Shown here: positions 1,132-62,573 of the stretch, piece after piece
Numbering within the stretch: the stretch's first letter is position 1
Layout: every line of letters begins with the position of its first letter
Origin: Candidatus Kaelpia imicola
GTDB lineage: Bacteria > Omnitrophota > Gorgyraeia > Kaelpiales > Kaelpiaceae
DNA length: 64,000 bases
Assembly: GCA_030765505.1 (NCBI GenBank)
Contig: JAVCCL010000043.1
Location: 69,686 to 133,685 of the forward strand
Direction: 5' to 3'
Made by a program: the position numbers and the translations under genes
Notes under the pieces: generated by a model
The model's input: the letters and a program-made list of their open reading frames with translations, nothing else
The model's database searches: none
Told to the model about the DNA's origin: nothing

Positions 1132-1261
1132 TTTATAGTTTTTTTGTGGACATAAATATAGGTGTGATATAAAGTTAAAAAAGCTCTTTTAAAATATAGT
1201 TCAACGGTGTAAGGGAAGTTGGTGTGCCTCATATTTTGGCAAATCCAACACAGCCCCGCTG

Positions 1262-1380
1262 CTGTAGCTCAGCCCTGCATAGCAGGGAACTTTTTTAGCA
1301 AGTTTGAAGCCACTGCCTGTATAATGTAGGTGGGAAGGCGGCTAAAAGAGCTGAGGAGTCAGAAAACCTGACTGTTGAAG
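1262..1380 (+). promoter_or_regulatory. Cobalamin (AdoCbl) riboswitch aptamer in the btuB leader
   Basis: Conserved riboswitch elements appear in the canonical order: AGCAGGGAA (~1281), GCCACUGCC (1309-1317), GGUGGGAAGGC (1329-1339) and a B12-box-like GAGUCAGAAAACCUGACUG (1357-1375). It lies directly upstream of a TonB-dependent receptor/ABC importer operon. Confidence 0.75.
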
Positions 1381-1446
1381 ATAAGTTATAGTTCTCTCGC
1401 GGTGAGGAGAACGGCTATCGTACCATTGGGTTTATAAATCGAGGGT

Positions 1447-3522: not shown

Positions 3523-3557
3523 TATATAGAGCTTATCTTCTATGTTAAAATAATGCA

Positions 3558-23080: not shown

Positions 23081-23086
23081 CTAAAA

Positions 23087-35612: not shown

Positions 35613-36800
35613 ATGAAGAATAAAGATGTTGCCCGGTTATATTCTAAATATATTATGGATACATATACCCATCTTCCAATCTCTCTTGTAAAGGGAAGAG
35701 AGTCCAGGGTATGGGATTTAGAGCAGAATGAGTATTTGGATTTATTTCCAGGTTGGGGTGTCTCTATTTTGGGACATTCTCCTTCTAAGGTTGTCTCTCA
35801 TATTAGAAATCAAGCCGGTAAGATAATACATATATCTAACAATTACTACAACCACCTCCAGGCTAAGCTTGCTCAAAAAATAGTTAAAATAGCGCAGATC
35901 GACGCCAAAGTTTTTTTCTGCAATTCAGGAGCAGAGGCTAATGAAGGAGCCTTTAAACTGGCAAGGTTATACGGAGCAGGCAATAGATATAAAATAATTA
36001 CGATGAACGACTCTTTTCATGGCAGAACTCTAGCCTCTCTCTCTGCAACAGGGCAGGAAAAATACAAAAAAGATTTCGAGCCTCTACCCGAAGGTTTTAC
36101 CCATGTTCCTTTTAACGATTTTGAGGCTTTTCAGAGCAGTGTTGACAATGAAACTGTGGCGATTATGTTAGAGCTGGTTCAGGGTGAGGGCGGTATAAAT
36201 GTTGCCGATTACGACTATATCCAGAGAGTGAAAAAGTTTTGTAATGAGCGGGATATATTATTTATTGCTGATGAGGTTCAGACTGGAATGGGTAGGACCG
36301 GAAAATGGTTTGCATATCAGAATTTTGACATTGAGCCCGATATAGTTACTTTAGCAAAAGGTATTGGCGGAGGAGTTCCTATGGGTGCTGTTTTTGCCAA
36401 AGATAAGGTTGCTGATTGTATTAAGCCTGGAATGCATGCTTCTACTTTTGGCGGAAGCCCTATTGCATGTAAAGCGGCTTTAGCCGTTGTAGATACTATA
36501 ATGAGCAAGAAATTGCTCAATAATGTAACCGATATGAGTAAATATTTTAAAGGCAGGCTGCTGGATTTAAAAGAAAAGTATGATTTAATAGATAGTGTTA
36601 GAGGTTTAGGTCTCATGATAGGTGTGGAGGTTAAAGATAAAGGCAAGGAGATTTTTGAGGGCTGCCTTGCTAATAGGCTTTTAATTAATTTAACCCAGGG
36701 CAATATCTTAAGATTTTTGCCGGCGCTGAATATTAACAAAAAGGATATAGATAAAGCTATTATAATATTAGATGGAGTATTAAAAGAGGTGCAGAGATGA
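35613..36800 (+). CDS. argD: Acetylornithine aminotransferase (class III PLP aminotransferase)
   Basis: Class III aminotransferase motifs including GIGGGVPMGA and the PLP-lysine region. Adjacent to argF. Confidence 0.85.
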   Translation: MKNKDVARLYSKYIMDTYTHLPISLVKGRESRVWDLEQNEYLDLFPGWGVSILGHSPSKVVSHIRNQAGKIIHISNNYYNHLQAKLAQKIVKIAQIDAKVFFCNSGAEANEGAFKLARLYGAGNRYKIITMNDSFHGRTLASLSATGQEKYKKDFEPLPEGFTHVPFNDFEAFQSSVDNETVAIMLELVQGEGGINVADYDYIQRVKKFCNERDILFIADEVQTGMGRTGKWFAYQNFDIEPDIVTLAKGIGGGVPMGAVFAKDKVADCIKPGMHASTFGGSPIACKAALAVVDTIMSKKLLNNVTDMSKYFKGRLLDLKEKYDLIDSVRGLGLMIGVEVKDKGKEIFEGCLANRLLINLTQGNILRFLPALNINKKDIDKAIIILDGVLKEVQR

Positions 36801-37525
36801 ATCATTTTTTAAGCATTAATGATTTAAGCAGGAAAGATATAACAGGGTTTATCAATGCTGCAAAAAATCTTAAAAAGAAGAGAAGGCAGGAGAAGATACT
36901 TAAAGGCAAGAGTTTCGTTCTTTTATTTGATAAACCTTCTTTAAGAACAAAGGTTAGCTTTGAAGTCGCCATAGCTGAACTTGGAGGTAGCTATTCATAT
37001 TTAGGAGATGGTTCGGCTGGGTTCGGTAAGCGTGAATCTCTCAAAGATACGGCAGAGGTGCTTTCAAGGTATATCCATTGTTCTATTGTAAGAACTTTTA
37101 AACAGAAAGACCTTTTAAGGTTTGCACGGTTTTCTTCAGCTTCTGTCGTTAATGCTCTTACTGATACAGAGCATCCCTGCCAGATTTTAAGCGACCTTCT
37201 AACCATAACTGAAAAAGTTGGGAGCCTGGATAATTTTAAAATTGCTTTCATCGGTGATGGTAATAATGTCTGTAATTCACTTATACAGGCAGCAGCAGTT
37301 TTGAAGTTCAAACTGTCAATTGCAACACCTTCTGGTTATGAGCCTAAGAGAGAGAGCTATAGGGTTAAACTGGAAGATTTAAATAAGCAGAGCTTAAGAG
37401 TAGAGATAGTCAATTCACCTCAAGATGCGGTAAGAGATGCAGATTTTGTATACACAGATGTTTGGACCTCTATGGGTTGGGAAGAAGAGCAGTCAGATAG
37501 AAAAAAGATCTTTGAGTCCTATTAA
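36797..37525 (+). CDS. argF: Ornithine carbamoyltransferase, interrupted by an in-frame TAA; homology continues in-frame to 37711
   Basis: STRTKVSFE-type motif PSLRTKVSFE. After the TAA at 37523-37525, the same frame encodes ...[21 protein letters not shown]...[16 protein letters not shown], the conserved OTC C-terminus. Confidence 0.8.
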   Translation: MNHFLSINDLSRKDITGFINAAKNLKKKRRQEKILKGKSFVLLFDKPSLRTKVSFEVAIAELGGSYSYLGDGSAGFGKRESLKDTAEVLSRYIHCSIVRTFKQKDLLRFARFSSASVVNALTDTEHPCQILSDLLTITEKVGSLDNFKIAFIGDGNNVCNSLIQAAAVLKFKLSIATPSGYEPKRESYRVKLEDLNKQSLRVEIVNSPQDAVRDADFVYTDVWTSMGWEEEQSDRKKIFESY

Positions 37526-37721
37526 ATTAATAAGGATTTACTTAAAAACGCAGGGAAGAGATGCTACGTGATGCATTGCCTGCCTGCGCATAGAGGAGAG
37601 GAGATAACAGATGATCTTATCGACTCTGAGAACTCTATAGTATTTGACCAAGCTGAAAACAGACTCCATATGCATAAAGCTATTTTAATTAAGCTTTTAT
37701 CTAAAAGGTAGATTTTCTTTA

Positions 37722-39305
37722 ATGTCCAGGAAAACAGTTTTTTTGATACTTCTTCTTATAGTCGTATTTCATCTCTTAAACAATTTTATTATTCTCACAA
37801 TAGATGATACTCCTCCAGTAGGACACTATGGGCTCTATTTTTCACATAGCCTGTATCTCTTTGAACAGTTTAAAAATCTTTCGCCTGGATTTATAACTGA
37901 GCTGTTTAACGTTAATAGTATATATCCCCCTCTGCTCTATTTAACGCCCATACCTCTCTATTATATTTTTAGCATAGATTATGATGTTGCTTCTTTTTCA
38001 GTCGGACTGCTCTATCTTTCTGTATTTATATTCTCTCTATATTTTCTAGCAACCTACCTCTTTAAACCTTCTGTAGGGATTGTAGCTGCTCTTATCGGTT
38101 CTCTCTTTGCGGCAGTCTTTGGCTATGCCAGGCTATTTCTAATGGCATTTCCAATGGTTGCCATTTTGACATTGAATATCTATCTTATGTTTAAGACCGA
38201 AGTGTTTAAGAAGAGGCTATATGTAGTACTCTTTGCTTCTGTTTTAGCTTTAGGGATGCTGATGAAGAAATTTTACTTTATCTATATCTCTTTTTTTACA
38301 TTAATCTATCTGATTGAAAACAGAAAATTGATATCTAAAGAGCGGTTCAAGGTTTTTTTAAATATTTTTATTGCAGCTGGTATTGTTATATCTATTTCCG
38401 GGTATTGGTATCTTCGCAACATTGAACCCATTTTGTTCCAGCTTAAAAGTGACCAGCCTACAATATTTTATAATGAAGGCTATAGTTTTAATTTTTTAAT
38501 TTATTTAAAGTATTTGATTAGATATCAATTAGGTTGGTTCTTATTCTCTCTTTTTTTAATATCTTTTATCTATCTTGTTATCAAAAAGAGGTCCGCGCTT
38601 TTTCTATCAGCTTGGGTTATATGGCCCTACCTTATCTCTTCTCTTTTTATTGTTGAGAAGAGTTCCCGCTATACAATGGCCATGCTGCCTGCGATTGCTA
38701 TCATAATTGCTAATGGAATAATGGGATTTTCAGATAACCTGAAGCTTAAAAGAAGGCCTGCTTTAAGGTGCTCTCTTATGTTTTTAATTTTAGCTGTTCC
38801 GGTGTTTAATTTTTTTAAGACCTCTTATGGCGGGGGAGTAGAAGTGTTCAATTATAGGGATGAGACAGATAGGTTCTTTTATACCGGATTATTAAGGTCT
38901 AAGAAGATTGGTTGGGATATTGAAGATTTAGAAAAAACCTTAATTCAAGATGGTAAAAATAAAATCATGATAGATGGGTTCGGCTACTGGTATCTTTTAA
39001 ATGACTACTTGAATAACTTTATTGAAAATAACAATCTCTCTATCAGCTTTATTCATTTGGAGTTTGACGAAAGAGATAAAGATTATAGAAAGCTTATAGA
39101 GGAAGGGGATTTTATTATTTTAAGATCCGATGACGGGTCTTCTATTCCCAATATCAGCCTACCTTTTGAAAATGAAAACTTAGAGAAGATCCGTTCTCTT
39201 CTGGTTATATTTAATGAATATAAAGAGAAGTTTGAATTAATCAATAGGGTTACCATAGAAGGTAGGTTTACGGAGAGAACGCTGTTGATTTATAAGAGAA
39301 TATAG
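37722..39305 (+). CDS. GT-C-like polytopic membrane protein (PMT_2/ArnT-like), paralog 2, with C-terminal soluble domain
   Basis: N-terminal TM helix followed by TIDDTPPVGHY, then about 11 further TM helices and a ~150-aa C-terminal domain. Confidence 0.45.
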   Translation: MSRKTVFLILLLIVVFHLLNNFIILTIDDTPPVGHYGLYFSHSLYLFEQFKNLSPGFITELFNVNSIYPPLLYLTPIPLYYIFSIDYDVASFSVGLLYLSVFIFSLYFLATYLFKPSVGIVAALIGSLFAAVFGYARLFLMAFPMVAILTLNIYLMFKTEVFKKRLYVVLFASVLALGMLMKKFYFIYISFFTLIYLIENRKLISKERFKVFLNIFIAAGIVISISGYWYLRNIEPILFQLKSDQPTIFYNEGYSFNFLIYLKYLIRYQLGWFLFSLFLISFIYLVIKKRSALFLSAWVIWPYLISSLFIVEKSSRYTMAMLPAIAIIIANGIMGFSDNLKLKRRPALRCSLMFLILAVPVFNFFKTSYGGGVEVFNYRDETDRFFYTGLLRSKKIGWDIEDLEKTLIQDGKNKIMIDGFGYWYLLNDYLNNFIENNNLSISFIHLEFDERDKDYRKLIEEGDFIILRSDDGSSIPNISLPFENENLEKIRSLLVIFNEYKEKFELINRVTIEGRFTERTLLIYKRI

Positions 39306-41240
39306 ATGAAAACAAAAGAGAGAGTTCTGCTCTATTTTCTATTATTAATCTTAGTTTTAACAAAGCTGCAGTATTTATTTAAAGCGGGATTGTTATTTGA
39401 TACCTGGGAGATGTGCAATCTATTTATTGCAAATACAATAGTAAAACATCGGATATTTTTGCCCTCATTTTTTCATCTCTCTGTACCTTATGCAGGCGGC
39501 GGAGACTATCTGTATAGTCTTCTCTCTGCTCCTTTTGTCTATCTGTTTGGCAGCAACATTTTTTCAATTCGGATATTAACTATCTTTCTTAACATGGTTG
39601 AACTTAGCCTTCTTTTTTACATTGTAAATAGGTATTGGAGCTGGAGGGAGGCTCTTGGAGCTTCTTTATTATTCATATTTTGTTCTAAGTATATTTTTAT
39701 CTATTCTATTGTCGGTATGGGACGGCATTTTCATTTAGGTCTATTCTTTTTATTATCGCTGTTTTTCTACCTTAGATTTAAAGAGAAAAAGGGGTATCTC
39801 TCTGCTGTTCTATTTGGTCTCAGCATGGGTATTGGTAATTATTTCTATCCGGCTTTTGCAGTATTTATCTCTATTTTTATACTTTTTTTTCTGCTGAGCA
39901 TTGACTGGAAGAGAGTATCAGATTATCTTAAGATCTTCATTGTGCTTTCCTCTACGATACTATCAGGTCTCTTTTACAAAGTTGTTTTTTTAGATTTTAA
40001 CATTGCCTACACTTTTAAAAGTACTTTTATGCTCTCTACCCATTCCCCTAAGGCAATATTCCCGATAGATAATATTTTTATTATTGTAAAAAGGTTTATC
40101 TTATTCCTGTTTTTTCTGGTTCCGGATTTTTTATCTTTTAATCTTTTTCACACTGGAGAATATTTTAACCTCTTTAGAGATATTGAGAGTCTATCTTTAG
40201 TAAAAGCTTTTCAAGAAATATTTAACCTCTATCAATCTAAGAGTAACTCTTTGGATATCTTTTATGCCGATCTATACCGGGTAATCTTTATTCTATTTTT
40301 TGCAATTATTATTTCTTATATTCTTAAAAGAGCAAAAAACTTTAAGCAGTTTGTGATTGGAGAGAGAGGAAGAGATAAGAAAGCATTGAAAAACTCTATT
40401 ACAGCATTGCTCTCTGTAACAATATTGGTCTATTTTTTCTTATATATCTTAAATGGCCGCTCTATCACTACTTATAAATATTATCTACCGTTATTTATAC
40501 CGATTATTCTTGCTCTAACTATAGTTACTGCATGGAAAAAAAGTTTTTTCTTGCCGTTATTAATTATTTTGCTGATTCCCGGTTTTAACTTTCAGCTTCA
40601 AGCGTTAAAAACCTCTGATTCCAAAGGCAACCCTCTTATGCCGCTCTATTATGGCGACAAATCGACTTTAGAGTTTCTGGGCGATAGCAATAACTCAGAA
40701 CAAAAGAAACTTATAGAGCTAAATATAAATACAGCCCATACTCTGGGCTATATATTGGCTGATAGGAGTAAAGATTGCTCTGCATTGCGTCTGCTGGCTG
40801 GAGATATTTCTTTTTCAGATAAGGCTAGGCGTTTTTTCTGGGAAGGATGGTTTTCCAAGATGTTCTTAAATGAGAGCATAGATATTGATTATGTTAAAAA
40901 TTATCTCGCAGATTTAAAGAGAGAAGAGAGGTTTTTCGCTTTTTCCGGGATAGGCGAAGCTCTCATCCAGAATTCTATATATTGTCCGGATATATCTGAA
41001 TATTTTAAAAGTGCAGAGAGAGATATTTTAAAGATAACAACTATAGAGGAGAGAGTCTATTTTTATCAGGGTTTAGGCAGGGGCTTAGCTCGCTTATACG
41101 GTAGCGATGTCTATTCTGCAAAAGGGCCTTATATAGCTGATAAGAGGTTGTTCTATTCTTACCTTCAGATGGTAGATAGGGATAATATAACTGATTTTAT
41201 AAATGGGTTTTTACTTAAAGAGTTATGGCAGCCTTTATAG
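39306..41240 (+). CDS. GT-C-like polytopic membrane protein, paralog 3, with ~200-aa C-terminal soluble domain
   Basis: Many TM helices. Start is adjacent to the previous stop. C-terminal domain is of unknown function. Confidence 0.4.
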   Translation: MKTKERVLLYFLLLILVLTKLQYLFKAGLLFDTWEMCNLFIANTIVKHRIFLPSFFHLSVPYAGGGDYLYSLLSAPFVYLFGSNIFSIRILTIFLNMVELSLLFYIVNRYWSWREALGASLLFIFCSKYIFIYSIVGMGRHFHLGLFFLLSLFFYLRFKEKKGYLSAVLFGLSMGIGNYFYPAFAVFISIFILFFLLSIDWKRVSDYLKIFIVLSSTILSGLFYKVVFLDFNIAYTFKSTFMLSTHSPKAIFPIDNIFIIVKRFILFLFFLVPDFLSFNLFHTGEYFNLFRDIESLSLVKAFQEIFNLYQSKSNSLDIFYADLYRVIFILFFAIIISYILKRAKNFKQFVIGERGRDKKALKNSITALLSVTILVYFFLYILNGRSITTYKYYLPLFIPIILALTIVTAWKKSFFLPLLIILLIPGFNFQLQALKTSDSKGNPLMPLYYGDKSTLEFLGDSNNSEQKKLIELNINTAHTLGYILADRSKDCSALRLLAGDISFSDKARRFFWEGWFSKMFLNESIDIDYVKNYLADLKREERFFAFSGIGEALIQNSIYCPDISEYFKSAERDILKITTIEERVYFYQGLGRGLARLYGSDVYSAKGPYIADKRLFYSYLQMVDRDNITDFINGFLLKELWQPL

Positions 41241-41257
41241 ATTGGTGCTTAATTGTC

Positions 41258-41956
41258 CTATGATTTTCGAGCTCTAAAGATTGAGCTTACTCCAAAAGGT
41301 ATATTGAATCTCTTAGAAAAGGCTAAGTCCCATCTTATAAAAAAGAAGGAGAGATTGTTTAAAAAATCAGGTAGATTTATACAGTCATCCGTCTCTTTTT
41401 TTATATTTAATATTTTTTGAAATTTTCTGAATAGATATACAGCTAAAAATATTGTCCAGCCAAAAAGATCAACTTCTGTATTACTAAAGCCGGATTTGGA
41501 TAGTTTATCCAAGAGTTCTCTCTTTCTGTAGCGGCGGTAATGCTTGTTAAGCTTATCTTGCTGTCCCCAGAGGGTAGGCGACATGGGTAGAGAGCCGAAT
41601 AGAAGTCCGGATTTCTCTAAAACTCTGGATATCTCTTCTAAGGCTCTCTTGTCATCTTTTATATGCTCTAATACTTCAAAGGAGACTACAATTTTAAAGC
41701 TCTCTTTTTTAAACGGTAGATTGGTCAAATTCGCGATTACTCGATTCTCTATAGTGTTGTTATCCATTGTTTTTAAATCCAGGGCTATTATTTTTTTATA
41801 GTTTAAGGCTATATTTGAAAAATAACCGTTGCCGCAGCCTGCATCAAGTATCAATGTCTCTTCGGGCATCTTTAGTTTTTTGAGGGTTTTTAGTGCGGTC
41901 TCATACTTTATCTTTATCCACCAGTAGTTGTGGGTAAGCTTAAAATAGTTCAGCAT
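41258..41956 (-). CDS. Class I SAM-dependent methyltransferase (type 11-like)
   Basis: Motif I LDAGCGNGY and VVSFEVLEH. Last gene of the minus-strand operon. Confidence 0.7.
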   Translation of the reverse strand: MLNYFKLTHNYWWIKIKYETALKTLKKLKMPEETLILDAGCGNGYFSNIALNYKKIIALDLKTMDNNTIENRVIANLTNLPFKKESFKIVVSFEVLEHIKDDKRALEEISRVLEKSGLLFGSLPMSPTLWGQQDKLNKHYRRYRKRELLDKLSKSGFSNTEVDLFGWTIFLAVYLFRKFQKILNIKKETDDCINLPDFLNNLSFFFIRWDLAFSKRFNIPFGVSSIFRARKS

Positions 41957-42665
41957 CTTTTTTTATCCTGCGAGTAGATTTCCATATTCGGAATACCTCT
42001 CTAAGTGTTCTTGGAATATCCTGGATGCCTATCTTTGAATAATCTCCGAGTCTTGGAAAATGTTCTACGGATATCTCAGCGATAGAAAGATTGAATATTT
42101 TTGCTTTTGCCAATATCTCTGTATTTACAGAGAATCTTTTAGATTCAATAGTTATTTTATTAAAGATGTCTTTATGAAATAGTTTAAAAGCGCAGTCTAT
42201 GTCCTTCACATTAAGGTTGAATATGTATCGCATGAGCAGGTTATAGCCTTTTGAGAGCACTATTCTCAAAAGAGAGTCTTTTCTTATTTTACGATAGCCG
42301 ATTACTATATCATGGTTTCTAATGCTCGGTAGTAATAGTTCAAGGTTTTTTATGTCAAACTGCCTGTCGGAATCAGTAAAGAATATTGTATCATTACTGC
42401 AGTTTTTAAATCCTGTCGCTAACGATGCACCGTAACCTGTATTAGAGTTATGCTTGATAAGTTTTATTCTATCGTTATGAAGGCTCAATCTATGGGCTAT
42501 AGAGAAAGAGCTATCTTTACTCCCGTCATCTACTAGTATAATTTCATAGGATTGGAACTTTTGAACTAAATAATCGTTAATATCTGTTATGGCTCTCTCT
42601 ATATGATACTGTTCATTATAAAATGGCAGTACTACGCTTATTGAATGCCTGATTATTTTTTCCAT
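41940..42665 (-). CDS. GT2 glycosyltransferase (DPM1-like, no TM)
   Basis: VVLPFYNEQ, ILVDDGSKDSS and FTDSDRQFD (DxD) motifs. Confidence 0.8.
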   Translation of the reverse strand: MEKIIRHSISVVLPFYNEQYHIERAITDINDYLVQKFQSYEIILVDDGSKDSSFSIAHRLSLHNDRIKLIKHNSNTGYGASLATGFKNCSNDTIFFTDSDRQFDIKNLELLLPSIRNHDIVIGYRKIRKDSLLRIVLSKGYNLLMRYIFNLNVKDIDCAFKLFHKDIFNKITIESKRFSVNTEILAKAKIFNLSIAEISVEHFPRLGDYSKIGIQDIPRTLREVFRIWKSTRRIKKDAELF

Positions 42666-44302
42666 AGCAATAGGTGTGTTATTAAATTCTTTGAATCAGT
42701 GCTTGTTAGTCTTAGTTTAAGTACTTCCTCTCTCTCTATGTTATCGGAGAGTGAATAGAGCCTGCTCTCTTCTTCAGGCATGATTCTAAAGACCGATATT
42801 GACTCTTTGAAGCTTTTTGCATCCATTATTATCTGTTCTATATCTTTAGCTGTAAATATCAACCTATATTTGAGAGAGTGCTTATCGGCGTATATTTTAA
42901 GGTAGGCGCTTATTTCACTACATAGTTGATGGGATTTGCTCTCTCTAATAAACATATCTATTATCAATTTATCAGTTGAGTATATTTTGATCTGCTCTAT
43001 TATACTCTGAAAGATAATCTTATTATTATAATCCGGCGGTCTTACCTCATAATTGTATAACAGGGGATAGATATTACCTTTAGCGTCATAATAATCTCTA
43101 TCTTTGAAGAGTTTTGTTTTAAGAAGGGGTTTCTGCTTGATCTCTAGGAAAGAGGATGAAATATTCTGCGTTATCCCGAATAAAAACAATACCGAGATTG
43201 TTGTATTGCGTAATCCTTTTTTAAGTCCGGATATGAATATGGCCGATATTATGGCGCATATTGGGATATAGCCGATACTGTAACGCGCCCATTTTACATC
43301 TCCGGTTTGAAGGAAGAGATAGGGGATTAAAATAGCTAACCATAGATGTGTAAAATTTTGGTCTATTTTTTTTCGAAAGATTAGATTTATAGTGCCCGAG
43401 ATAAACACTAAGAAGAATGGTAATGATAGTTGATAATTTATAAGTGTAAAAAGATAGAAAAACCAGGAGTTTAAGCTGCCAGACGGTATCGTCTCTCCAC
43501 CTATTAGACCCTTTCTGCTGTAGCTCATAAGCAGGTATCTAATTATCTCTTTATAGTTTTTTACATAGTAGCCTATAGCAGGGGCTAAGGCGATAAAGAT
43601 TATTAGCGCTATATTTAAACATTTAGTCTTATTGGTAGATGTTGAGTTTTTATTCCAGTTAATTATTAGCTTAAAGAGTTCATAGATAATGCCTGGGACA
43701 ACAAATATCAAGAAGTGATATTTAGTTAATAGCCCCAAACAGAGAGATAGCCCCAGGAGTATTGAATATTTGGTGTTTGAGAAGTTCTGGCTTTTTATAA
43801 TCAGATAGATTATCAGGGGAACTAAAGCCAGGATAAGTGTCTCTAACATCGGATAGCGGGATATTCCGTAAGTTGCAGGATAGAGTGTCAGGATAATAAA
43901 GCTTATGCAGCCTGCAGACCTATTTTTAAGAACTGATGATATTTTATAGCTAAATAGAGCTGATATTAATACTATTACAGAGTTAACTGTTACTACTGTC
44001 ATATGATTTATTCTTCCCAGAATTAATCCTGTCAGGGAATGAATCAGAAAATAGAGTGAGGGATAAGAGCTATGGCCGTAGCTCAAGTAAAGAGAGTCTT
44101 TTAAGAATCCAATGTCGTGTTGTAAATTTATAAAAAGGTCTATTATGCTATTAAAATTATCTGAGCCCATACACATATAGCTAAAGTTGAAATTATAATG
44201 TTCCCAGAGTAGATTTATTGCTATAAAAAGTAATGCAGAGATAGACAGCAGGGTCATCAGCAGATGCTTGCTGTTTTTTTTATCTATCTTATTTATCGAC
44301 AT
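42653..44302 (-). CDS. GT-C fold membrane glycosyltransferase (PMT_2/ArnT-like), paralog 4
   Basis: Polytopic N-terminal two-thirds plus a C-terminal soluble domain. Overlaps its neighbours by 13-14 nt. Confidence 0.5.
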   Translation of the reverse strand: MSINKIDKKNSKHLLMTLLSISALLFIAINLLWEHYNFNFSYMCMGSDNFNSIIDLFINLQHDIGFLKDSLYLSYGHSSYPSLYFLIHSLTGLILGRINHMTVVTVNSVIVLISALFSYKISSVLKNRSAGCISFIILTLYPATYGISRYPMLETLILALVPLIIYLIIKSQNFSNTKYSILLGLSLCLGLLTKYHFLIFVVPGIIYELFKLIINWNKNSTSTNKTKCLNIALIIFIALAPAIGYYVKNYKEIIRYLLMSYSRKGLIGGETIPSGSLNSWFFYLFTLINYQLSLPFFLVFISGTINLIFRKKIDQNFTHLWLAILIPYLFLQTGDVKWARYSIGYIPICAIISAIFISGLKKGLRNTTISVLFLFGITQNISSSFLEIKQKPLLKTKLFKDRDYYDAKGNIYPLLYNYEVRPPDYNNKIIFQSIIEQIKIYSTDKLIIDMFIRESKSHQLCSEISAYLKIYADKHSLKYRLIFTAKDIEQIIMDAKSFKESISVFRIMPEEESRLYSLSDNIEREEVLKLRLTSTDSKNLITHLLLWKK

Positions 44303-45737
44303 TATCGTATCCGTATATATGGTAGTAAATCAGTAGATAGGCTATATTGAGACCGTTTTTAATCAGACCCTTGTAGATATAGATAGAGAGGTGAAGAAAA
44401 TATTTAAGGCCCTGTTTTCTAATCATAGATAGTAATCTTTTGCCGAAGGTTATAAAATAGGCCAGTTTCTGATAATGTTCAATCTCTTTAGGCGTAAGCT
44501 CTTTAGTGTATATAGCTGCTCCAAAGGTTATATTATTAGCCTTCTTCCATCTTCTCTTATCTATCTTACCCCCTAAAGAGTATATCTGTTCGATGCTTTC
44601 TCTTGTGAAAGGCTTATAGATAAAAAATGCAGAGCGTTCCGCCTTTATCTTATCAGCAAATCTTATAGTATCCTTTATTGTCTTTTTTGTCTCTCCCGGG
44701 CCGCCTAATATATAAAAAGCGGTTAATGCTATATTATATTCTTTGCAGAGTTTGGCTATCTCTGTAATTTTTTTATTGCTAACAGGTTTTTTGTAAATAT
44801 TACTTCGTATATACTCATTACCGGTTTCAATTCCGACTCTCAACAATGCACACCCGGACTTGGCGAGGATTTTGAGCCTATCCTCATCCAGGTTGTCTAT
44901 TCGGGCAAAAGAACTGAACTTTATCTCCTTAGCCAGCCCTAATTTACGGTAATTATAACAGAACTCTTCAAGCCAGGTCCGGTCTATTGTAAATACAGGG
45001 TCAAATAATTGCAGCAGCCTTAGATTGCGGTTTTTGTATTTGTTCCAGTGGTATAACATCTCTTGGGCATAATCTTTTGGATTGCGCATTCTGAAATAAT
45101 TTCCTCCCACTGCATCTGATATTCCATGAGCATCGCAATAGCTGCATCTGTAAGGACAGCCCCTGGAACCGATAATGTATAGCATGCCCAGAAAATAGAA
45201 GTATCTATCCAGGTCTTCCCAGAGATCCCAGTCGGGATAGGGGAGGGCGTCCAGATTCTCATTGAAGCTGCCGCCGCCGTTCCTTATGATCTGGTCTTCT
45301 CTCTTGAACCAGATACCTTCAGTATTATATGGTTCTTCGTTATCCCTGACTCTATTCAGATAGTTTAAAAGCGGTATCTCTCCATCTCCGATATAGACAG
45401 CATCGCATTCAGGAATGTTGATTGTCTCTTCAGGGTATATCGATGCGTGATGCCCTCCCACCATTATGGGTAGATTGTAATGTTCTTTAATCTCTTCCAT
45501 CACGGTCTTTACATACTGCATATACATCGTATTGCTTGAGAAGCCGATTAAGTCTGGCTTATGTTTTTCTATTTTTGTTTTTAAATATTCTCTCCAGTGT
45601 CTTTTGTGAAAAGTTAGATCTATTATTGAAGCTGAATGTTCTGATTTTTTGTTTACGTAACTAGCAAGATAAGTGATAGCTATATCCATAGCGCTATAGT
45701 CATTACCGAGAGTAGGATTTATAAAACTTATATGCAT
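44289..45737 (-). CDS. B12-binding domain / radical SAM protein (class B)
   Basis: N-terminal B12-binding Rossmann region followed by IIGSRGCPYRCSYCDAH (CxxxCxxC). Confidence 0.8.
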   Translation of the reverse strand: MHISFINPTLGNDYSAMDIAITYLASYVNKKSEHSASIIDLTFHKRHWREYLKTKIEKHKPDLIGFSSNTMYMQYVKTVMEEIKEHYNLPIMVGGHHASIYPEETINIPECDAVYIGDGEIPLLNYLNRVRDNEEPYNTEGIWFKREDQIIRNGGGSFNENLDALPYPDWDLWEDLDRYFYFLGMLYIIGSRGCPYRCSYCDAHGISDAVGGNYFRMRNPKDYAQEMLYHWNKYKNRNLRLLQLFDPVFTIDRTWLEEFCYNYRKLGLAKEIKFSSFARIDNLDEDRLKILAKSGCALLRVGIETGNEYIRSNIYKKPVSNKKITEIAKLCKEYNIALTAFYILGGPGETKKTIKDTIRFADKIKAERSAFFIYKPFTRESIEQIYSLGGKIDKRRWKKANNITFGAAIYTKELTPKEIEHYQKLAYFITFGKRLLSMIRKQGLKYFLHLSIYIYKGLIKNGLNIAYLLIYYHIYGYDNVDK

Positions 45738-45738
45738 T

Positions 45739-47121
45739 TTAAAAGAACCTCGCTATCTTATTTAAGAGTTTTTTTATTCCTCGGAGACTCCTGAAGTGTC
45801 TCATTAAGTAAGCCCAGTGACGCGGGTGAAGATAGAATAGAGTGACACCTGTTTTTTGGAGTAAGGATACAACAAGAGCATTATTATTCCCGTTTTGAAA
45901 TGATACCTTAGAATAGTAATCGAAATTACTGGAGGAGCCGAGTATTTTGAATATAGATAGTTTCTTCATTTTTTGATAAAGCAGCGTTCCGATAAAAGGA
46001 GTTGTTATCGAAAAGCTCGCTTCGGCAAGATTCAATTTTAAAGATAGGTTTATAGTCTTTAAGATCTCTTTTTTTGATTCATCCGGTGCGCCTATCATAA
46101 AGAAACCCGAGGGGTAGATCCTGCTCTTCCTGGTACTCTCTATGGTTTTGCCTACTCTCTTTAGCTCTATCCCTTTATTGTAGACCTGGTCTAATATTCT
46201 TTGAGACCCTGATTCAATCCCGTAATGTATTACTCTTAAGCCTGATTGATACATCTTATTGAGCAGCTCTTCATCAACAGTATCTATCCTGCTGTTGCAG
46301 CCCCAGAGTATATTCATCTTATTGTTTTGGATTATATCGCAGAATCTATTTATCCAATCTCTGTTTACGGGTAGGGTATCATCATGAAAAAAGAAATTTT
46401 CTATTCTAAAACTCTCTCTATAGTAATTTAGCTCTTTTATCAGATACTGAGGGCTTTTATAGCGTATACCGTCTCCGAATATCAATCGTAAGGTAGGTTG
46501 GCAGTAGCTGCAGTTGAATAAGCATCCTCTTGAGGCTATGACATTTAACCCTCTTTTAGCCGGATCCAAAGGGTCGAGGTAGTGCCATAGGTCGAAGTAT
46601 TGGTCAAGATTTTCAAGTAGATCCAGCGCTGGTATCTCTAAAGAGTCAAGCTCTATTTGTTTGCGTTCTTCCCGGCTTTTAAATATTGTTCTATCTCTCT
46701 TGAAATATATACTTGGAACACTATCTAAATCTCTTTGAGGCAGCCTCTCTATCAGCCGGTTCATGGTATCCTCTGCTTCACCTATGACTGCGATATCGAC
46801 AATATCTATTATGCTCTCCGGTGCTACTGTTACCTGGGGTCCGCCTGCAATGAGAATAGTGGTTTTAGGAAGCTCTCTTATCAGTTCCCGGACAGCTTTA
46901 TACATAACAGAGTCTATATATATGCCTATGGCTTGGGGTCTTATTCTGGATATCTCATTCTTTATTTTTTTAAAGGAGTTGTGAAAGGTACTATCCAGTA
47001 TGTTTATCTTTAGCTCTGGATGCTGTCTTTTTAGATAAGAGGCTATTGAGCATATTCCTAAAGGAGGGTCTCCGGATCTATATTTTAGACGCGGGAAGAT
47101 AAAAGTTAATGAATCTATCAT
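45739..47121 (-). CDS. B12-binding domain / radical SAM protein (class B)
   Basis: B12-binding region (ILIAGGPQVT...GEAE) followed by VIASRGCLFNCSYCQP (CxxxCxxC). Confidence 0.8.
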   Translation of the reverse strand: MIDSLTFIFPRLKYRSGDPPLGICSIASYLKRQHPELKINILDSTFHNSFKKIKNEISRIRPQAIGIYIDSVMYKAVRELIRELPKTTILIAGGPQVTVAPESIIDIVDIAVIGEAEDTMNRLIERLPQRDLDSVPSIYFKRDRTIFKSREERKQIELDSLEIPALDLLENLDQYFDLWHYLDPLDPAKRGLNVIASRGCLFNCSYCQPTLRLIFGDGIRYKSPQYLIKELNYYRESFRIENFFFHDDTLPVNRDWINRFCDIIQNNKMNILWGCNSRIDTVDEELLNKMYQSGLRVIHYGIESGSQRILDQVYNKGIELKRVGKTIESTRKSRIYPSGFFMIGAPDESKKEILKTINLSLKLNLAEASFSITTPFIGTLLYQKMKKLSIFKILGSSSNFDYYSKVSFQNGNNNALVVSLLQKTGVTLFYLHPRHWAYLMRHFRSLRGIKKLLNKIARFF

Positions 47122-47171
47122 TGATAGCCTTGTTGATTTTAAGTTATAAAGTTATCTAATGTGTATTGACT

Positions 47172-47180
47172 ATTATAGCA
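47172..47180 (-). promoter_or_regulatory. Extended -10 promoter element (TGcTATAAT) for the minus-strand rSAM/GT operon
   Basis: The reverse complement of 47172-47180 reads TGCTATAAT, 51 nt upstream of the rSAM start codon at 47121. No good -35 hexamer. Confidence 0.4.
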
Positions 47181-47236
47181 TCTCATTCTGTTTTGGACTA
47201 TAAAGCATAAAGTTTAGATGTTTTAGCATTCTATTA

Positions 47237-48451
47237 TCAAATATTATCATTTTTATTCCAAGGTGTCTTTTTAAATAAAAAGATTGAGATTTTTAATATC
47301 GGGTCGAATCTACAGTCAAATATTATTTGCTTGCTATAGAGCAACTCGTATCCAATGATGCCGGTTTTATCTAATGCCGATTCTTTACTGCTAAATATAA
47401 TGAAATCATTATCTGCTTCCAAAGCTTCTTGGTGGTCTTCAAAAAACATCACATTTCTAAATCCGCGTTCTGTTAAGAATATACGCAACCACTGCGAGTA
47501 GCCATCTTCTTCAATTAGGGCTATCTTTACAAAGTTACGATTAGAGTTATTGAGATGCAAAAGCAGACCATTGAATTTTAACAATCTTATAGGGTTGCCA
47601 TACCTTGTATGCTTTGGGATAAAATATTTAGAGATGTTATCAGGTTTCATCAGTTTTGAGTTTACGAAGAAGCTGAATTTGAAAAAATATAGCAAACCGA
47701 AATATAATGTTATTATCCAGATTAATATTTTTAATTTTCTCCATTTTAATTCAGTTACCCCGTATGCTGATATAATAGCTAGTGCTGGCATTATAGGAAT
47801 TATATAACGGTCTCTCTTGGTTGTAGCTATGCTCAGTATAATCATCGAAAGGATAATCCAGCTAAACAATATATGTCTCTCTTTCTGTTTTTTCTTCAGG
47901 AGATAGTATAGGCCTAAAGCGATTAATGAGATTGAATAATAAGAGAGAGATAGGTTGCCTAAAGTAGAGATATAAAAGAATATCGGTTGATTATCTTTAA
48001 GAGTTGATAGTTTTATCAAGTCTTTTATCCGGTATTCTAAAGGGTAATAATATATCAGTGCTATTAGGAGAGTAAATGCAAAACAGATTATGAGATTGTT
48101 TAAATTGTTTTTCTTCTGTCCTCTTATAGTGATATAGGCAAGGTAGATTAAAGGTCCTGATATAAAAACTAAAACACTCTGTTTTGTAAGCAACCCCAAC
48201 CCTAATATTATTCCGCAGATTATAGAGTTGTATCTTTTGGAGAAAAAATCACTCTCTATAAGCGCAAGTATCGAGCAGGTTACCATTGTTGTAGTTGGTA
48301 ATATTAAATTGTAGCTGCGGGAATAGAGGTAGATTGGGGGATAGAGGGATAATATTGCAGCAGCCATCAATCCTGTCTCTCTGTCTTTTAGGTGCTTTCC
48401 GATAGTATAGGTTGCTATGATAAGGAAGATAAGGAATAGAGAGTTTGTCAT
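47237..48451 (-). CDS. GT-C fold membrane glycosyltransferase, paralog 5; the reading frame continues upstream to an ATG at 48757 through a single in-frame TGA at 48665-48667
   Basis: An upstream in-frame segment encodes MLSRISGIKKQKYILLLLTIVLFHLSANII, then a stop, then INANTYPELAEEIGHIGG...YAMTNS. This gives a TM1 plus acidic/His loop N-terminus matching the other paralogs. Confidence 0.5.
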   Translation of the reverse strand: MTNSLFLIFLIIATYTIGKHLKDRETGLMAAAILSLYPPIYLYSRSYNLILPTTTMVTCSILALIESDFFSKRYNSIICGIILGLGLLTKQSVLVFISGPLIYLAYITIRGQKKNNLNNLIICFAFTLLIALIYYYPLEYRIKDLIKLSTLKDNQPIFFYISTLGNLSLSYYSISLIALGLYYLLKKKQKERHILFSWIILSMIILSIATTKRDRYIIPIMPALAIISAYGVTELKWRKLKILIWIITLYFGLLYFFKFSFFVNSKLMKPDNISKYFIPKHTRYGNPIRLLKFNGLLLHLNNSNRNFVKIALIEEDGYSQWLRIFLTERGFRNVMFFEDHQEALEADNDFIIFSSKESALDKTGIIGYELLYSKQIIFDCRFDPILKISIFLFKKTPWNKNDNI

Positions 48452-48868
48452 GGCGTAAGTTGTATATCTTAAGCCTGCAATCTGTATAAATGCGAATGAG
48501 ATAAGATAAAATAGATGCGGTTTTTCGGCTTTAGGGTTAGCAAAGGTTCTAAATATAGCAGTTGGACTATACTCTTTATCATATTTAAGATAGCTATAGA
48601 TACCGGTAATTCCTCCGATATGCCCTATCTCTTCTGCCAGTTCAGGGTAGGTATTAGCATTAATTCATATGATGTTTGCACTTAGATGGAATAGTACGAT
48701 TGTTAAGAGAAGTAATATATATTTCTGTTTTTTGATTCCGGAAATACGACTGAGCATTTTAACATTATATATGGTAGTATAATTACAGCATAGGAAAAAT
48801 ATTGTTTTTGGAATAGAAAAAAGGTTGCTTTTCGGGTATCATATTGTTTTAAATAATCGGAGGATATT

Positions 48869-60980: not shown

Positions 60981-62573
60981 ATGATTAAATCCACTTCGTT
61001 TCGCAGCGGGGTTTTTATCGTACTCTTCTTAGCTCTTCTTTTAGCTTTTGCCAACTATCTATACCTTTTAAAGTCCGACGATATTTTTACAGGTGATCAA
61101 GTAGCTCATATTACAAATAGTGTCAGGTGTTACAGGTCTGGGTTTGATATTTTTAATAAGAGACAGGGCTTTGCTCTCTATCTTATATCTTCTCTTCTTT
61201 ATCATCTCTTTCCTTTAAACTATTATACAGCAATTCTCTCCAATATTTTTTTCTCTCTTCTGTTATTCGGATCTGTGTATGCAATGGTTCTAAAGATTAA
61301 ACAAAAAAAATCCGCTGCTATGTTTGCAGCATTTTTAATTGCAGTCTATCCGATAAGCTTTGGGCTTTCACGTTTTTATCTTCTGGAATATTCGTTAATG
61401 TCCTGGGTTGCATTGTTCTACATGCTTCTTCTCTATTGTAATAATTTTAAGAATAGGTTCTATACTGTATTAGCGGCGCTTGTCCTCGGCTTAGGCCCGA
61501 TTACAAAAGAGTCTTTCTTTATATATGTAATCCCGGTTATCATCTATAAATTCTGTCTTGTTATTAAAGATAGAAGCGTAAACATAGAGAGGATTAGACT
61601 TAACCTGCTCTTTTTTCTTTCGTTTTCTTTTCTGGCCAGTTTCTGGTTTTTCTCCAGCCCCAAGGGTATTATCAACGAAGGTCTATGTAGATTATTGAGA
61701 GAGGGAGGCAATAATCCTGATATTAGTTGGTTCTCTTTAAGAAACATTACTTTCTATCTATATCCATTGGTTGATTTCAATCTCTCTCCTTTTTATGCTT
61801 TTTTGTTCGTTTCGGCTCTAGTGGTATTTTTCAAGAACAGATTTAAATTTAAACGGGAATTGGTCATCTGGTTTATTATGCCTTTTATTATATTCTCTCT
61901 CTTTCCCTGGAAGCTGGCCAGATATATTGCGGCGGTTACTCCTGCAGCAGCGGTAATTACATCTTTAGGAATAAGCACTTTTGGGAAATACCTGCGCCGG
62001 TCTCTATATCTATTCTCTGTTATCTTTGGTTTGGTGCAGTTTCTTACCTTAAGTTACGGTCTCTATCCTTTTAAAGCAAATTGTTTTATAAGAACAGAGT
62101 TTTTAAGTAAACTCTTTTCACTGACTCCGAATAGATATTGCGAAGATTTTGAAATAGCTACTCCTAATAAATCCTATAGCGGGTCTTTAGAGATTCTTGA
62201 TGCTTTCGATGAGTTCAGGATAAATATGGCAGGAGGGGCGGAACCTGAGGAGATTAAGGTCTGCAGGGTGCTCAATGTAAAGTCTAAATCCGGTTATTCA
62301 GTAGAGCATTCGATATCTTCTATGCTGCCTTACTTCAATGAAGTTAAAGGCCACTATTCAATAGATTATTGTTATCTGGATGAGAGTAGAGTTTTGAACT
62401 ATTTTGAAGGCAGCAGGGTAGAAGATTTAGATAAATTCGATATCTTTTTATTTTATCAGCCCGAATTATCTCTCTATATTGAAGGTAATCTAAGACTCTA
62501 CAAAGAGTTGAGTTATAAAACCGGAAATATAGATAGAAGTATCAGCATCTTCTATGATGCTGATAAATATTAG
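60981..62573 (+). CDS. GT-C fold membrane glycosyltransferase (PMT_2/ArnT-like), paralog 6
   Basis: TM1 followed by DDIFTGDQVAHI, about 11 TM helices, and a ~150-aa C-terminal domain. Confidence 0.5.
   Translation: MIKSTSFRSGVFIVLFLALLLAFANYLYLLKSDDIFTGDQVAHITNSVRCYRSGFDIFNKRQGFALYLISSLLYHLFPLNYYTAILSNIFFSLLLFGSVYAMVLKIKQKKSAAMFAAFLIAVYPISFGLSRFYLLEYSLMSWVALFYMLLLYCNNFKNRFYTVLAALVLGLGPITKESFFIYVIPVIIYKFCLVIKDRSVNIERIRLNLLFFLSFSFLASFWFFSSPKGIINEGLCRLLREGGNNPDISWFSLRNITFYLYPLVDFNLSPFYAFLFVSALVVFFKNRFKFKRELVIWFIMPFIIFSLFPWKLARYIAAVTPAAAVITSLGISTFGKYLRRSLYLFSVIFGLVQFLTLSYGLYPFKANCFIRTEFLSKLFSLTPNRYCEDFEIATPNKSYSGSLEILDAFDEFRINMAGGAEPEEIKVCRVLNVKSKSGYSVEHSISSMLPYFNEVKGHYSIDYCYLDESRVLNYFEGSRVEDLDKFDIFLFYQPELSLYIEGNLRLYKELSYKTGNIDRSISIFYDADKY

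Follow-up and report, generated by a model that had tools for sequence, protein, structure and literature searches.

An ancient radical SAM pair beside a GT-C/GT2/methyltransferase trio in Candidatus Kaelpia imicola, a probable operon for lipid-linked-sugar modification and glycosylation

Polyprenyl-phosphate-sugar systems (ArnC/ArnT with ArnEF; GtrB/GtrA/Gtr-type; PpgS/Rv3779; PgfS with GT-C partners) are expected to combine a cytoplasmic donor synthase with an extracytoplasmic transferase. In hopanoid side-chain biosynthesis by HpnI/HpnK/HpnJ, and with the analogous calditol synthase Cds, a glycosyltransferase first joins a sugar to a lipid, after which the lipid-linked sugar is presumably rearranged by a radical SAM enzyme (PMC13459092). 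Gms/Gmm, which modify archaeal tetraether lipids, are a precedent for a consecutive pair, as the two radical SAM enzymes act one after the other and may associate physically (PMC13459092). AprD4 (PDB 6fd2), the radical SAM 1,2-diol dehydratase of apramycin biosynthesis, is non-methylating, has a sugar as its substrate, and binds no cobalamin (PMC12931638). The cobalamin-dependent radical SAM enzymes TsrM, MgmA/QCMT (9ccb), TokK, CysS, and OxsB are built from a Rossmann-like B12 domain at the N terminus, a radical SAM barrel, and a helical domain at the C terminus.

The window, by which we mean the whole 64-kb stretch of DNA analyzed, carries a minus-strand operon at 41258–47121. In order of transcription it encodes R1 (45739..47121, 460 aa) and R2 (44289..45737, 482 aa), two radical SAM proteins with N-terminal B12-binding-type domains; a polytopic GT-C fold glycosyltransferase of GT39/PMT_2-like type (42653..44302, 549 aa); a small, soluble GT2 nearest to polyprenyl-phosphate sugar synthases of the ArnC/PgfS/PpgS type (41940..42665, 241 aa); and a class I SAM-dependent methyltransferase (MT; 41258..41956, 232 aa). 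ORF calling and Pfam reproduced exactly the coordinates, strand, and families that a sequence-only reading had given for these five genes. Its claim of 13- to 17-nt overlaps applies to three junctions (R2/GT-C, 14 nt; GT-C/GT2, 13 nt; GT2/MT, 17 nt) and fails at R1/R2, where the genes abut without overlap (+1 nt). All five proteins have Pfam family matches above gathering scores and are exact matches to MDP8217056-60 of a Candidatus Kaelpia imicola MAG (Omnitrophota); all sequences compared are from MAGs or metagenome contigs.

The operon resembles polyprenyl-phosphate-sugar systems in that a GT2 matching ArnC, PgfS, and PpgS is encoded beside a polytopic PMT_2/GT39-like GT-C. The GT-C (PMT_2, 1.7e-9; PMT, 1.3e-5) has nine hydrophobic segments and a conserved acidic SDNF motif in its first loop, and only ∼5 close homologs, 38–45% identical, were found in 5.8 billion proteins. 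The GT2 (Glycos_transf_2, 1.2e-27) lacks a hydrophobic segment, and ArnC, PgfS, and PpgS are its top NCBIfam matches. Because the GT2 of this operon and that of a plus-strand operon in the window both fall below every NCBIfam cut-off, polyprenyl-phosphate specificity is putative. Unlike the described systems, the operon also encodes a methyltransferase (Methyltransf_11, 8.6e-17) and two radical SAM enzymes, and the analysis of the operon and the 64-kb window found no GtrA/ArnEF-type flippase gene. The searchable literature yielded no account of GT2/GT-C combined with these three enzymes. Relative to the Hpn system, the window lacks hopanoid genes, there are two radical SAM enzymes rather than one, and a GT-C is present; Gms/Gmm act on lipid chains and have no link to GT2 or GT-C genes.

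The five-gene arrangement recurs, complete or truncated by contig ends, in three related Omnitrophota contigs. Identities are 80% for R1, 84% for R2, and 75% for GT-C in L084; 68% for R2, 47% for GT-C, 65% for GT2, and 45% for MT in L087, which has the same argD-argF synteny as the window; and 55%, 69%, 45%, 63%, and 41% for R1, R2, GT-C, GT2, and MT, respectively, in L088. In all three, GT-C orthologs follow R2; R2/GT-C junctions in the Kaelpia relatives overlap or are 4 nt long, and MT orthologs in L087 and L088 hold the same operon position. Conservation within the operon is highest for R2, whose orthologs, mostly of 479–485 aa, are 50–84% identical in Omnitrophota, Elusimicrobiota, Bacteroidota, Woesearchaeota, and Nanoarchaeota.

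Both R1 (Radical_SAM, 2e-16; B12-binding, 4.1e-12; also Radical_SAM_N2) and R2 (Radical_SAM, 3.2e-17; B12-binding, 1e-16) exceed the gathering score of B12-binding PF02310 and carry a CxxxCxxC motif (C200/204/207 and C194/198/201, respectively). Their overall fold is like that of TsrM, MgmA/QCMT, TokK, CysS, and OxsB (TM 0.6–0.75). The AF2 model of R1 (pLDDT 93.8) has AprD4 as its top PDB structure (TM 0.77/0.77) followed by MgmA/QCMT, and that of R2 (pLDDT 92.6) has TsrM, MgmA, and AprD4. In profile alignments, homology to cobalamin-dependent enzymes extends into the B12 domain, with the N-terminal domains of both proteins aligning to the cobalamin domains of OxsB, TokK, CysS, and TsrM, and these domains thus look like genuine cobalamin domains. 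Identity to the five cobalamin-dependent enzymes is, however, 13–18%, and their known substrates (Trp, protein Gln, carbapenem, nucleoside) bear no relation to the glycan setting here. No NCBIfam model of a characterised class-B family reaches its cut-off; HpnJ is among the top matches (R1, 121 bits; R2, 117 bits), yet far below the cut-off of 577.6. As judged by these models, both proteins fall outside all characterised subfamilies, and C-methylation is thus just one candidate chemistry, next to deoxygenation and ring rearrangement. A cobalamin riboswitch and a BtuB/BtuFCD-like importer in the same 64-kb window were counted toward the B12-type reading of R1 and R2.

The explanation that we favor, and consider moderately probable as a whole, is that the five genes form one operon kept in a Kaelpia-related clade and consist of two separable units, an ancient R1-R2 pair, each member of which represents a separate orthologous family, and a GT-C/GT2/MT trio, which together serve lipid-linked-sugar modification and glycosylation. 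Included in this explanation is that the plus-strand operon, though alike in architectural type, is a separate cassette and not an ortholog. The mechanism and order of steps proposed here draw on topology and on what is known of these families. At the cytoplasmic face of the membrane, the soluble GT2 would charge polyprenyl phosphate with a sugar; either this polyprenyl-linked sugar or the nucleotide precursor of the sugar would be modified in the cytoplasm by R1, R2, and MT. We place these three in the cytoplasm because they lack membrane segments and because radical SAM enzymes require a reducing environment; hydrophobic segments number 9–12 in the GT-Cs and none in the radical SAM proteins, MTs, and small GT2. 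The modified lipid-linked sugar would then be flipped across the membrane, and the polytopic GT-C would pass the sugar to an envelope acceptor.

The sequence-only reading had instead taken the operon for a second copy of the plus-strand operon at 21360–29565. That operon is real, with genes for an MT (21360–22145), an ArnC-like GT2 (22142–23080), an AsnB-type amidotransferase (23087–24952), a GT-C (24939–26663), and a B12-domain radical SAM protein of 977 aa (26632–29565), all identified by ORF calling and Pfam and joined by junctions of −4, +6, −14, and −32 nt. In that account an ancestral MT/GT2/GT-C/radical SAM module was duplicated within the genome, one copy gaining asnB and the other a tandem radical SAM duplication for iterative C-methylations, which we regard as very unlikely. 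The two operons do share four families (class I MT, GT2, GT-C, and B12-domain radical SAM), and, as had been proposed, both are glycoconjugate-type cassettes. Counterparts are nevertheless only 25–33% identical (MT, 25%; GT2, 33%; GT-C, 30% over only 118 aa; radical SAM, 26%), and the order of genes is reversed along transcription: the plus-strand operon begins with MT and ends with radical SAM, whereas the other runs from radical SAM to MT. When ranked against all homologous ORFs in fetched related loci, the window counterpart was 120th to 160th of 179 for the radical SAM proteins and last for MT (27th of 27) and GT-C (13th of 13), no better than random family members, which as regards sequence similarity is the outcome that the sequence-only reading had itself named as refuting it. 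The GT2 pair alone ranks high (3rd of 68), the two being each other's third and seventh best matches, although their architectures are unlike, the plus-strand GT2 having 312 aa and membrane segments at its C terminus and the minus-strand GT2 being soluble, with 241 aa. Every minus-strand gene has orthologs in other genomes (closest: R1, 80%; R2, 84%; GT-C, 75%; GT2, 65%; MT, 45%) that are far closer than its plus-strand counterpart, and recent copying from the operon 15 kb upstream is thus not supported by these comparisons. Nor is a tandem duplication supported as the origin of the pair, as R1 and R2 are 27% identical and R1 stands farther from R2 than do at least 150 independent clusters at 50% identity. 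At E ≤ 1e-10, R1 has 1352 homologs, of which the nearest is 62% identical. Sequential C-methylations by R1 and R2 are possible, as their B12-type domains pass the Pfam threshold and their fold is like that of the methylases TsrM, MgmA, TokK, and CysS; no characterised methylase family matches at its cut-off.

The distribution of the pair also argues for great age, and it bears on whether R1 and R2 belong with the trio. R1 and R2 orthologs co-occur in 23 fetched loci of Omnitrophota, 'Planctomycetia', Elusimicrobiota, Bacteroidota, Thermoplasmatota, Methanosarcinales, and Woesearchaeota; those in other phyla and in archaea are each 35–84% identical to the window protein, so the pair long predates this genome. 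In 17 of the 23 loci the two genes meet at a junction of −10 to +3 nt, and three others have one gene inserted between them. By sequence, R1-R2 is an ancient pair, tightly spaced and conserved across phyla and domains, and is probably translationally coupled. In L001, L002, and L085 the strand that carries the pair lacks the GT-C/GT2/MT trio, and a minimal island of flavoprotein-R1-GT2-R2 in L090 has no GT-C within 8 kb, so the trio is not strictly needed by the pair. It is conceivable that R1 and R2 are independent of the trio and, with an amine-oxidase-like flavoprotein found in most other lineages, modify a substrate such as an isoprenoid or polyprenyl lipid chain, being merely neighbors of glycosylation genes in Kaelpia; we consider this, with its two parts taken jointly, unlikely though far from negligible. 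Consistent with it are flavoprotein-R1-R2 triads in L003, L007, L011, L012, L018, L020, and L090, weak similarity to NCBIfam lipid-modifying radical SAM families (HpnJ, a ladderane-lipid family, and HpnR), and basic, amphipathic C-terminal helices, seen in the sequences and AF2 models of both proteins, that could bind membranes. Against it, in L017 and L090 the gene that separates R1 from R2 is a small GT2, a GT2 directly adjoins the R1 homolog in 19 loci, R2 and GT-C are closely joined in the Kaelpia relatives, and even 'pair-only' loci have GT-C genes as immediate convergent neighbors. GT2 and GT-C each lie within three genes of the R1 homolog in 38 of 79 loci, and enrichment around R1 homologs is moderate, with GT2 making up 13% of adjoining genes versus 4% at six or more positions away, a control drawn only from the outer genes of the same loci. 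Quite unlikely, in our view, is that R1, and possibly R2 as well, resembles AprD4 in being a cobalamin-independent dehydratase or deoxygenase of carbohydrates instead of a methyltransferase, for which the flavoprotein would serve in other lineages as partner reductase. AprD4 is the top PDB sequence match of both (E of 5.1e-17 and 1.9e-11), it is similar in length and in its three-domain layout, and it has a sugar substrate. But identity is only 15–19%, similarity is restricted to the radical SAM core (R1 profile 155–385; R2 profile 184–420), the N-terminal domains are cobalamin-like, the NCBIfam AprD4 model scores 59–80 bits against a cut-off of 500, and the operon in the window has no reductase gene.

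Returning to the favored reading of pair and trio as one operon, its relation to the plus-strand cassette is informed by two relatives, L004 and L009, in which orthologs of both cassettes occur in one cluster on a single strand. There, orthologs of the plus-strand GT2 (44–45%), AsnB (32–42%), and long radical SAM protein (30–34%) share the cluster with R1-R2, and the two cassettes therefore probably cooperate. We suggest that, rather than being diverged duplicates, they probably build one complex surface glycoconjugate jointly.

Additional GT-C genes flank the operon. Upstream, 115 nt from the R1 gene, a minus-strand GT-C gene (47237..48757) is interrupted by an in-frame TGA at 48665–48667 (codon 31); homology continues through the TGA to ∼48736, and the part after the stop covers the whole PMT_2 domain (profile positions 3–157). 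It is possibly a sixth operon gene or a pseudogene. At the 3′ end, two plus-strand GT-C genes (37722–39305 and 39306–41240) abut the operon convergently. Their products have 12 and 11 hydrophobic segments, and their PMT_2 matches of 24.2 and 21.8 bits (E of 4.2e-5 and 2.4e-4) are below the gathering score of 26.1. Orthologs of the 644-aa member adjoin the R1-R2 pair in L002, L004, L009, L085, and L087, and the two genes complete a block inserted between argF and argG.

Five genes on the minus strand at 41258-47121 form a compact operon. In order of transcription, they encode two radical SAM (rSAM) proteins, R1 (460 aa, 45739-47121) and R2 (482 aa, 44289-45737), a GT-C (42653-44302), a GT2 of 241 aa (41940-42665), and an MT (41258-41956). 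All five ORFs are where an earlier sequence-only reading had placed them, and Pfam supports each family (PF04055 at 61.0 bits in R1 and 63.6 bits in R2, cut-off 29.5; PMT_2 at 38.6 bits in the GT-C, cut-off 26.1; GT2 and MT above gathering score). The proteins are identical to annotated MDP8217056-60, on a 155-kb contig of the Candidatus Kaelpia imicola MAG. Overlaps of 13-17 nt, which that reading claimed throughout, are present at three junctions (R2/GT-C, -14 nt; GT-C/GT2, -13 nt; GT2/MT, -17 nt), but R1 and R2 abut (+1 nt). A promoter scan of 37.4-49 kb gave nothing better than shuffled sequence, and terminators were weakly enriched.

Genes on one strand that overlap or abut, and that are in the same order in three related loci from other genomes (L084, L087, and L088), identify the five genes as a unit within one clade. 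Relative to the window proteins, identities are 68% (R2), 47% (GT-C), 65% (GT2), and 45% (MT) in L087, where the MT is followed by a convergent 648-aa GT-C and then argF and argD, the same synteny as in the window. In L088, identities are 55% (R1), 69% (R2), 45% (GT-C), 63% (GT2), and 41% (MT). Locus L084 has argG, another B12-type rSAM, R1 (80%), R2 (84%), and the GT-C (75%) before the contig ends. In three other loci (L001, L002, and L085), R1-R2 is all that is present of the operon at this position, and the convergent genes beside it encode GT-Cs. The operon therefore consists of two separable units, the R1-R2 pair and the trio of GT-C, GT2, and MT.

The operon had been interpreted as a second copy of a plus-strand operon at 21360-29565, elaborated by a tandem rSAM duplication. 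The plus-strand operon is as described, with an MT, an ArnC-like GT2 (312 aa), an AsnB-type amidotransferase, a GT-C, and a 977-aa rSAM (26632-29565). Counterparts were compared by BLASTP and then ranked among all homologous ORFs of the fetched related loci. Between operons, identities are only 25% (MT), 33% (GT2), 30% over only 118 residues (GT-C), and 26% (rSAM), versus 41-84% for orthologs in other genomes. The two MTs are each other's worst match (27th of 27 and 7th of 7). Among matches to the minus-strand GT-C, its plus-strand counterpart comes last (13th of 13), and the reverse search gave no match at all. Only the GT2s rank high as mutual matches (3rd of 68 and 7th of 67), and their architectures differ, with C-terminal membrane segments like those of ArnC present in the 312-aa protein and absent from the 241-aa protein. 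On sequence similarity, then, and except for the GT2s, counterparts are no closer to each other than to other members of their families, the outcome that the earlier reading had itself named as refuting it. The order of transcription is also reversed (MT, GT2, AsnB, GT-C, rSAM on the plus strand; rSAM, rSAM, GT-C, GT2, MT on the minus strand). With the reading as a duplicated module failing, what survives of the proposed likeness is a common family composition, whereas gene order is not collinear relative to transcription. Equal domain composition of two operons in one genome need not mean duplication, a caution for annotation.

Nor are R1 and R2 the products of a local duplication. They are 27% identical (BLASTP); as a match to R1, R2 ranks 120th of 179 and the 977-aa rSAM 155th, and as a match to R2, R1 ranks 133rd and the 977-aa rSAM 160th. 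Among 1.84 billion cluster representatives (50%-identity library), at least 150 independent clusters score at least 178 bits to R2, to which R1 scores 131-142 bits. Orthologs of both are together in 23 fetched loci labeled as Omnitrophota, "Planctomycetia", Elusimicrobiota, Bacteroidota, Thermoplasmatota, Methanosarcinales, and Woesearchaeota. This shared occurrence across phyla of bacteria and archaea argues that R1-R2 is ancient and co-inherited, and it displaces the tandem-duplication claim. We consider it well supported that the minus-strand operon is not a duplicate, that R1-R2 is an ancient pair, and that the operon is conserved.

Both members of the pair are widespread. For R1 there are 1352 homologs at E<=1e-10, of which the best shares 62% identity, and for R2 there are 1608. 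Orthologs of R2 are mostly 479-485 aa and are 50-84% identical across bacterial phyla, DPANN, and other archaea; the ortholog group corresponds to about one representative in the 50%-identity library. In 17 of the 23 loci, R2 starts between -10 and +3 nt from the R1 stop. In three, a single gene separates the two, encoding a GT2 in both L017 and L090 and a TPR/GDSL protein in L009, and in the remaining three, R1 and R2 are near each other on opposite strands. The near-zero spacing would favor coupled, equimolar expression, which fits either a heteromer or enzymes of consecutive steps. No R1-R2 fusion, which would have pointed to physical contact between the two, is among the best 150 cluster representatives, where the only multimodular forms are giant proteins with two to four more distant rSAM modules.

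Neighborhood counts and one island point to a small GT2 as the gene that accompanies the pair most constantly. A GT2 is within three genes of an R1 homolog in 38 of 79 loci, as is a GT-C (38 of 79), and GT2s make up 13% of genes adjoining an R1 homolog versus 4% of those six or more positions away. The island, in an Elusimicrobiota contig (L090:4470-9443), consists of an amine-oxidase-like flavoprotein, R1, GT2, and R2 between rho-side and aspS-side housekeeping genes, has no GT-C within 8 kb, and may be a minimal form of the system. A similar flavoprotein directly precedes R1-R2 in six loci (L003, L007, L011, L012, L018, and L020).

Domain content and predicted structures support a class-B architecture for R1 and R2. 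Each has the CxxxCxxC motif (R1 C200/204/207; R2 C194/198/201) and an N-terminal PF02310 domain above the cut-off of 32.1 (46.5 bits in R1 and 61.3 bits in R2). In profile searches, alignments of their N-terminal parts extend over the cobalamin domains of OxsB, TokK, CysS, and TsrM, while likeness to AprD4 is limited to the rSAM core. AF2 models (pLDDT of 93.8 for R1 and 92.6 for R2) match whole chains of AprD4, MgmA, TsrM, OxsB, CysS, and TokK at TM 0.6-0.77 and 12-19% identity. The best PDB sequence matches are AprD4 and 9ccb, the latter being QCMT/MgmA, a glutamine C-methyltransferase that depends on cobalamin. AprD4 works as a 1,2-diol dehydratase on a sugar and binds no cobalamin, showing that a class-B-like architecture can lack the cofactor (PMC12931638). 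Use of cobalamin by R1 and R2 is plausible from their domains, and methylation is only one candidate chemistry among several.

Searches for a named family did not give one. Matches from PDB sequence and fold searches are at the level of the superfamily, and all three rSAMs of the window score below the cut-off of every NCBIfam model. The top models, which also include BchE and QCMT, score 100-131 bits against cut-offs of 360-750, the best being ApyD (131 bits; cut-off 750), HpnJ (121 and 117 bits; 577.6), and the ladderane-lipid family (105-107 bits; 360); HpnR, PhpK, QCMT/MJ_0865, TsrM, KedN5, BzaD, and AprD4 are likewise below cut-off. The 977-aa rSAM has the CxxxCxxC motif (C243/247/250) and PF04055 (72.8 bits; cut-off 29.5), and its PF02310 score of 24 bits is below the cut-off of 32.1. 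Residues ~450-977 form a C-terminal extension of ~530 aa that has no Pfam match and is conserved in a 1042-aa ortholog (L004:311-3439).

B12-type radical SAM enzymes are among the largest pools of unassigned enzyme chemistry. R1 and R2 are two orthologous families that occur as a fixed, tightly spaced pair tied to genes of lipid-linked-sugar glycosylation. For both GT2s, the top NCBIfam matches are the polyprenyl-phosphate sugar synthases ArnC, PgfS, and PpgS, all below cut-off (74.5 bits for the 241-aa and 208.5 bits for the 312-aa protein; cut-off 529). The donors of PMT/ArnT-type GT-C enzymes are polyprenyl-phosphate sugars, used at the outer face of the membrane. The minus-strand GT-C is polytopic, with nine hydrophobic segments, and has an SDNF motif between the first two, where five of five orthologs have D or E; a polytopic topology combined with acidity in the first external loop supports its assignment as a GT-C. 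GT-Cs are polytopic membrane proteins, and the rSAMs, MTs, and 241-aa GT2 have no hydrophobic segments.

We suggest a four-step pathway as the most economical model. The GT2 would make a lipid-linked sugar; R1, R2, and the MT would act in the cytoplasm to modify this sugar or the nucleotide precursor from which it is made; the product would be flipped across the membrane; and the GT-C would transfer it to an acceptor in the envelope. Radical chemistry on a lipid-linked sugar has its closest precedent in HpnI/HpnK/HpnJ and calditol synthase (PMC13459092). Observations also weigh against the model. Scans revealed no flippase gene, as GtrA and ArnE/F types are absent from the Pfam-scanned ORFs of the window (a scan covering ORFs of <150 aa in part) and the overlapping operon has no room for one, and R1-R2 occurs without the trio in some genomes. 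The order of steps is much less supported than the operon and the pair. Taken as a whole, an explanation that combines a conserved, nonduplicate operon, an ancient R1-R2 pair, and a lipid-linked-sugar pathway is somewhat favored by the evidence.

A broader and distinctly more speculative proposal is that R1, R2, and the small GT2, with the amine-oxidase-like flavoprotein in most lineages, constitute an undescribed radical-SAM pathway common to many uncultured bacteria and archaea. Its product would be a polyprenyl-phosphate-borne sugar of an unusual kind (C-methylated, deoxygenated, or carbocyclic) for a GT-C to install on the envelope, with R1 and R2 acting as an obligate heteromer or as consecutive enzymes whose chemistry is unseen among B12-type radical SAM enzymes. 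The component superfamilies and GT2/GT-C logic are known; the fixed R1-R2 pair linked to a small GT2 and GT-C is new in the searched literature, which gave no account of such a pair nor of rSAMs combined with GT-C or polyprenyl-phosphate systems, and the Omnitrophota papers searched do not mention the system. The pair also leads to a testable idea about envelope decoration in uncultured nanobacteria and DPANN archaea. With more than 1000 database homologs each, R1 and R2 are, together with the GT2, a defined target for enzyme discovery.

Though not copies, the two operons may belong together. Loci L004 and L009 unite orthologs of both in one cluster on one strand, suggesting that one larger glycoconjugate system is scattered over the two operons of the window. 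Orthologs of the plus-strand operon in these clusters are an ArnC-like GT2 (44-45% identity), AsnB (32-42%), a GT-C (28%), and, in L004 only, the long rSAM with its C-terminal extension (30-34%); those of the minus-strand block are R1 (46-50%), R2 (57-59%), and the 644-aa GT-C (29-33%). The clusters also hold a DegT aminotransferase, hydrolases, and more GT-Cs. The plus-strand operon may itself begin upstream of 21360, since a truA-like pseudouridine synthase ORF (20758-21363, plus strand; 201 aa, GTG start) overlaps the MT start by 4 nt.

Other arrangements were also observed. In Armatimonadota/WS1 loci (L034-L036, L045, L054, and L071), R1 homologs are in a different conserved context, a ~740-aa protein, R1, and then proteins of ~660, 790, and 550 aa, with neither GT2 nor R2 detected. 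One contig region (L092:1-17437) packs eight or more B12-domain rSAM genes into 17 kb, along with GT2 and PMT_2 genes, and three giant proteins of 2,096-2,331 aa (P0292, P0312, and P0334) have four rSAM modules each. These suggest assembly-line use of many B12-domain rSAMs.

The minus-strand operon lies in a block (37722-48757) inside arginine genes, flanked by argD and argF at one end and by argG and argH at the other. Two plus-strand GT-C genes (37722-39305 and 39306-41240, the latter encoding 644 aa) are convergent to the operon. A third, on the minus strand (47237-48757), is 115 nt upstream of R1, and an in-frame TGA (48665-48667) breaks it at codon 31; homology extends to the ATG at 48757, and there is no start codon within 70 codons past the TGA. 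The slot between R1 and argG is occupied by the additional B12-type rSAM in L084 and is empty in L001 and L002. Altogether the 64-kb window has six GT-C genes (lower coordinates 24939, 37722, 39306, 42653, 47237, and 60981; the last spans 60981-62573), which are 25-30% identical to one another where alignable at all, making this an unusually GT-C-rich stretch.

The argF gene (ornithine carbamoyltransferase; 36797-37711, plus strand) has an in-frame TAA at 37523-37525 (…FESY*INKDLL…), at what we take, from the family motif, to be the usual Gln site of OTCases. The frame is open past HCLPAHRG to ~37711, and orthologs are intact in L085 (301 aa) and L087 (295 aa). This argF is either a pseudogene or a consensus error of the MAG. 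Stop-codon recoding does not account for this TAA or for the TGA of the upstream GT-C, as TAA, TGA, and TAG terminate 31, 12, and 10 of 53 long ORFs, respectively. Recent horizontal acquisition of the block as an island is similarly disfavored: its GC content is like that of the window elsewhere, neither an integrase nor a flanking tRNA is present, and the argD-argF and argG flanks are syntenic in L084, L085, and L087.

Also present in the window is a riboswitch for cobalamin (RF00174, 64 bits; 1165-1389, plus strand), directly upstream of a gene for a TonB-dependent receptor, the first of a plus-strand set (1522-6133) that continues with a periplasmic binding protein, a FecCD permease, and an ABC ATPase and resembles BtuB/BtuFCD. 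Together, riboswitch, receptor, and transporter indicate that the cell probably imports B12, circumstantial evidence for cobalamin use by R1 and R2. A putative B12 importer fits a genome rich in B12-domain rSAM genes.
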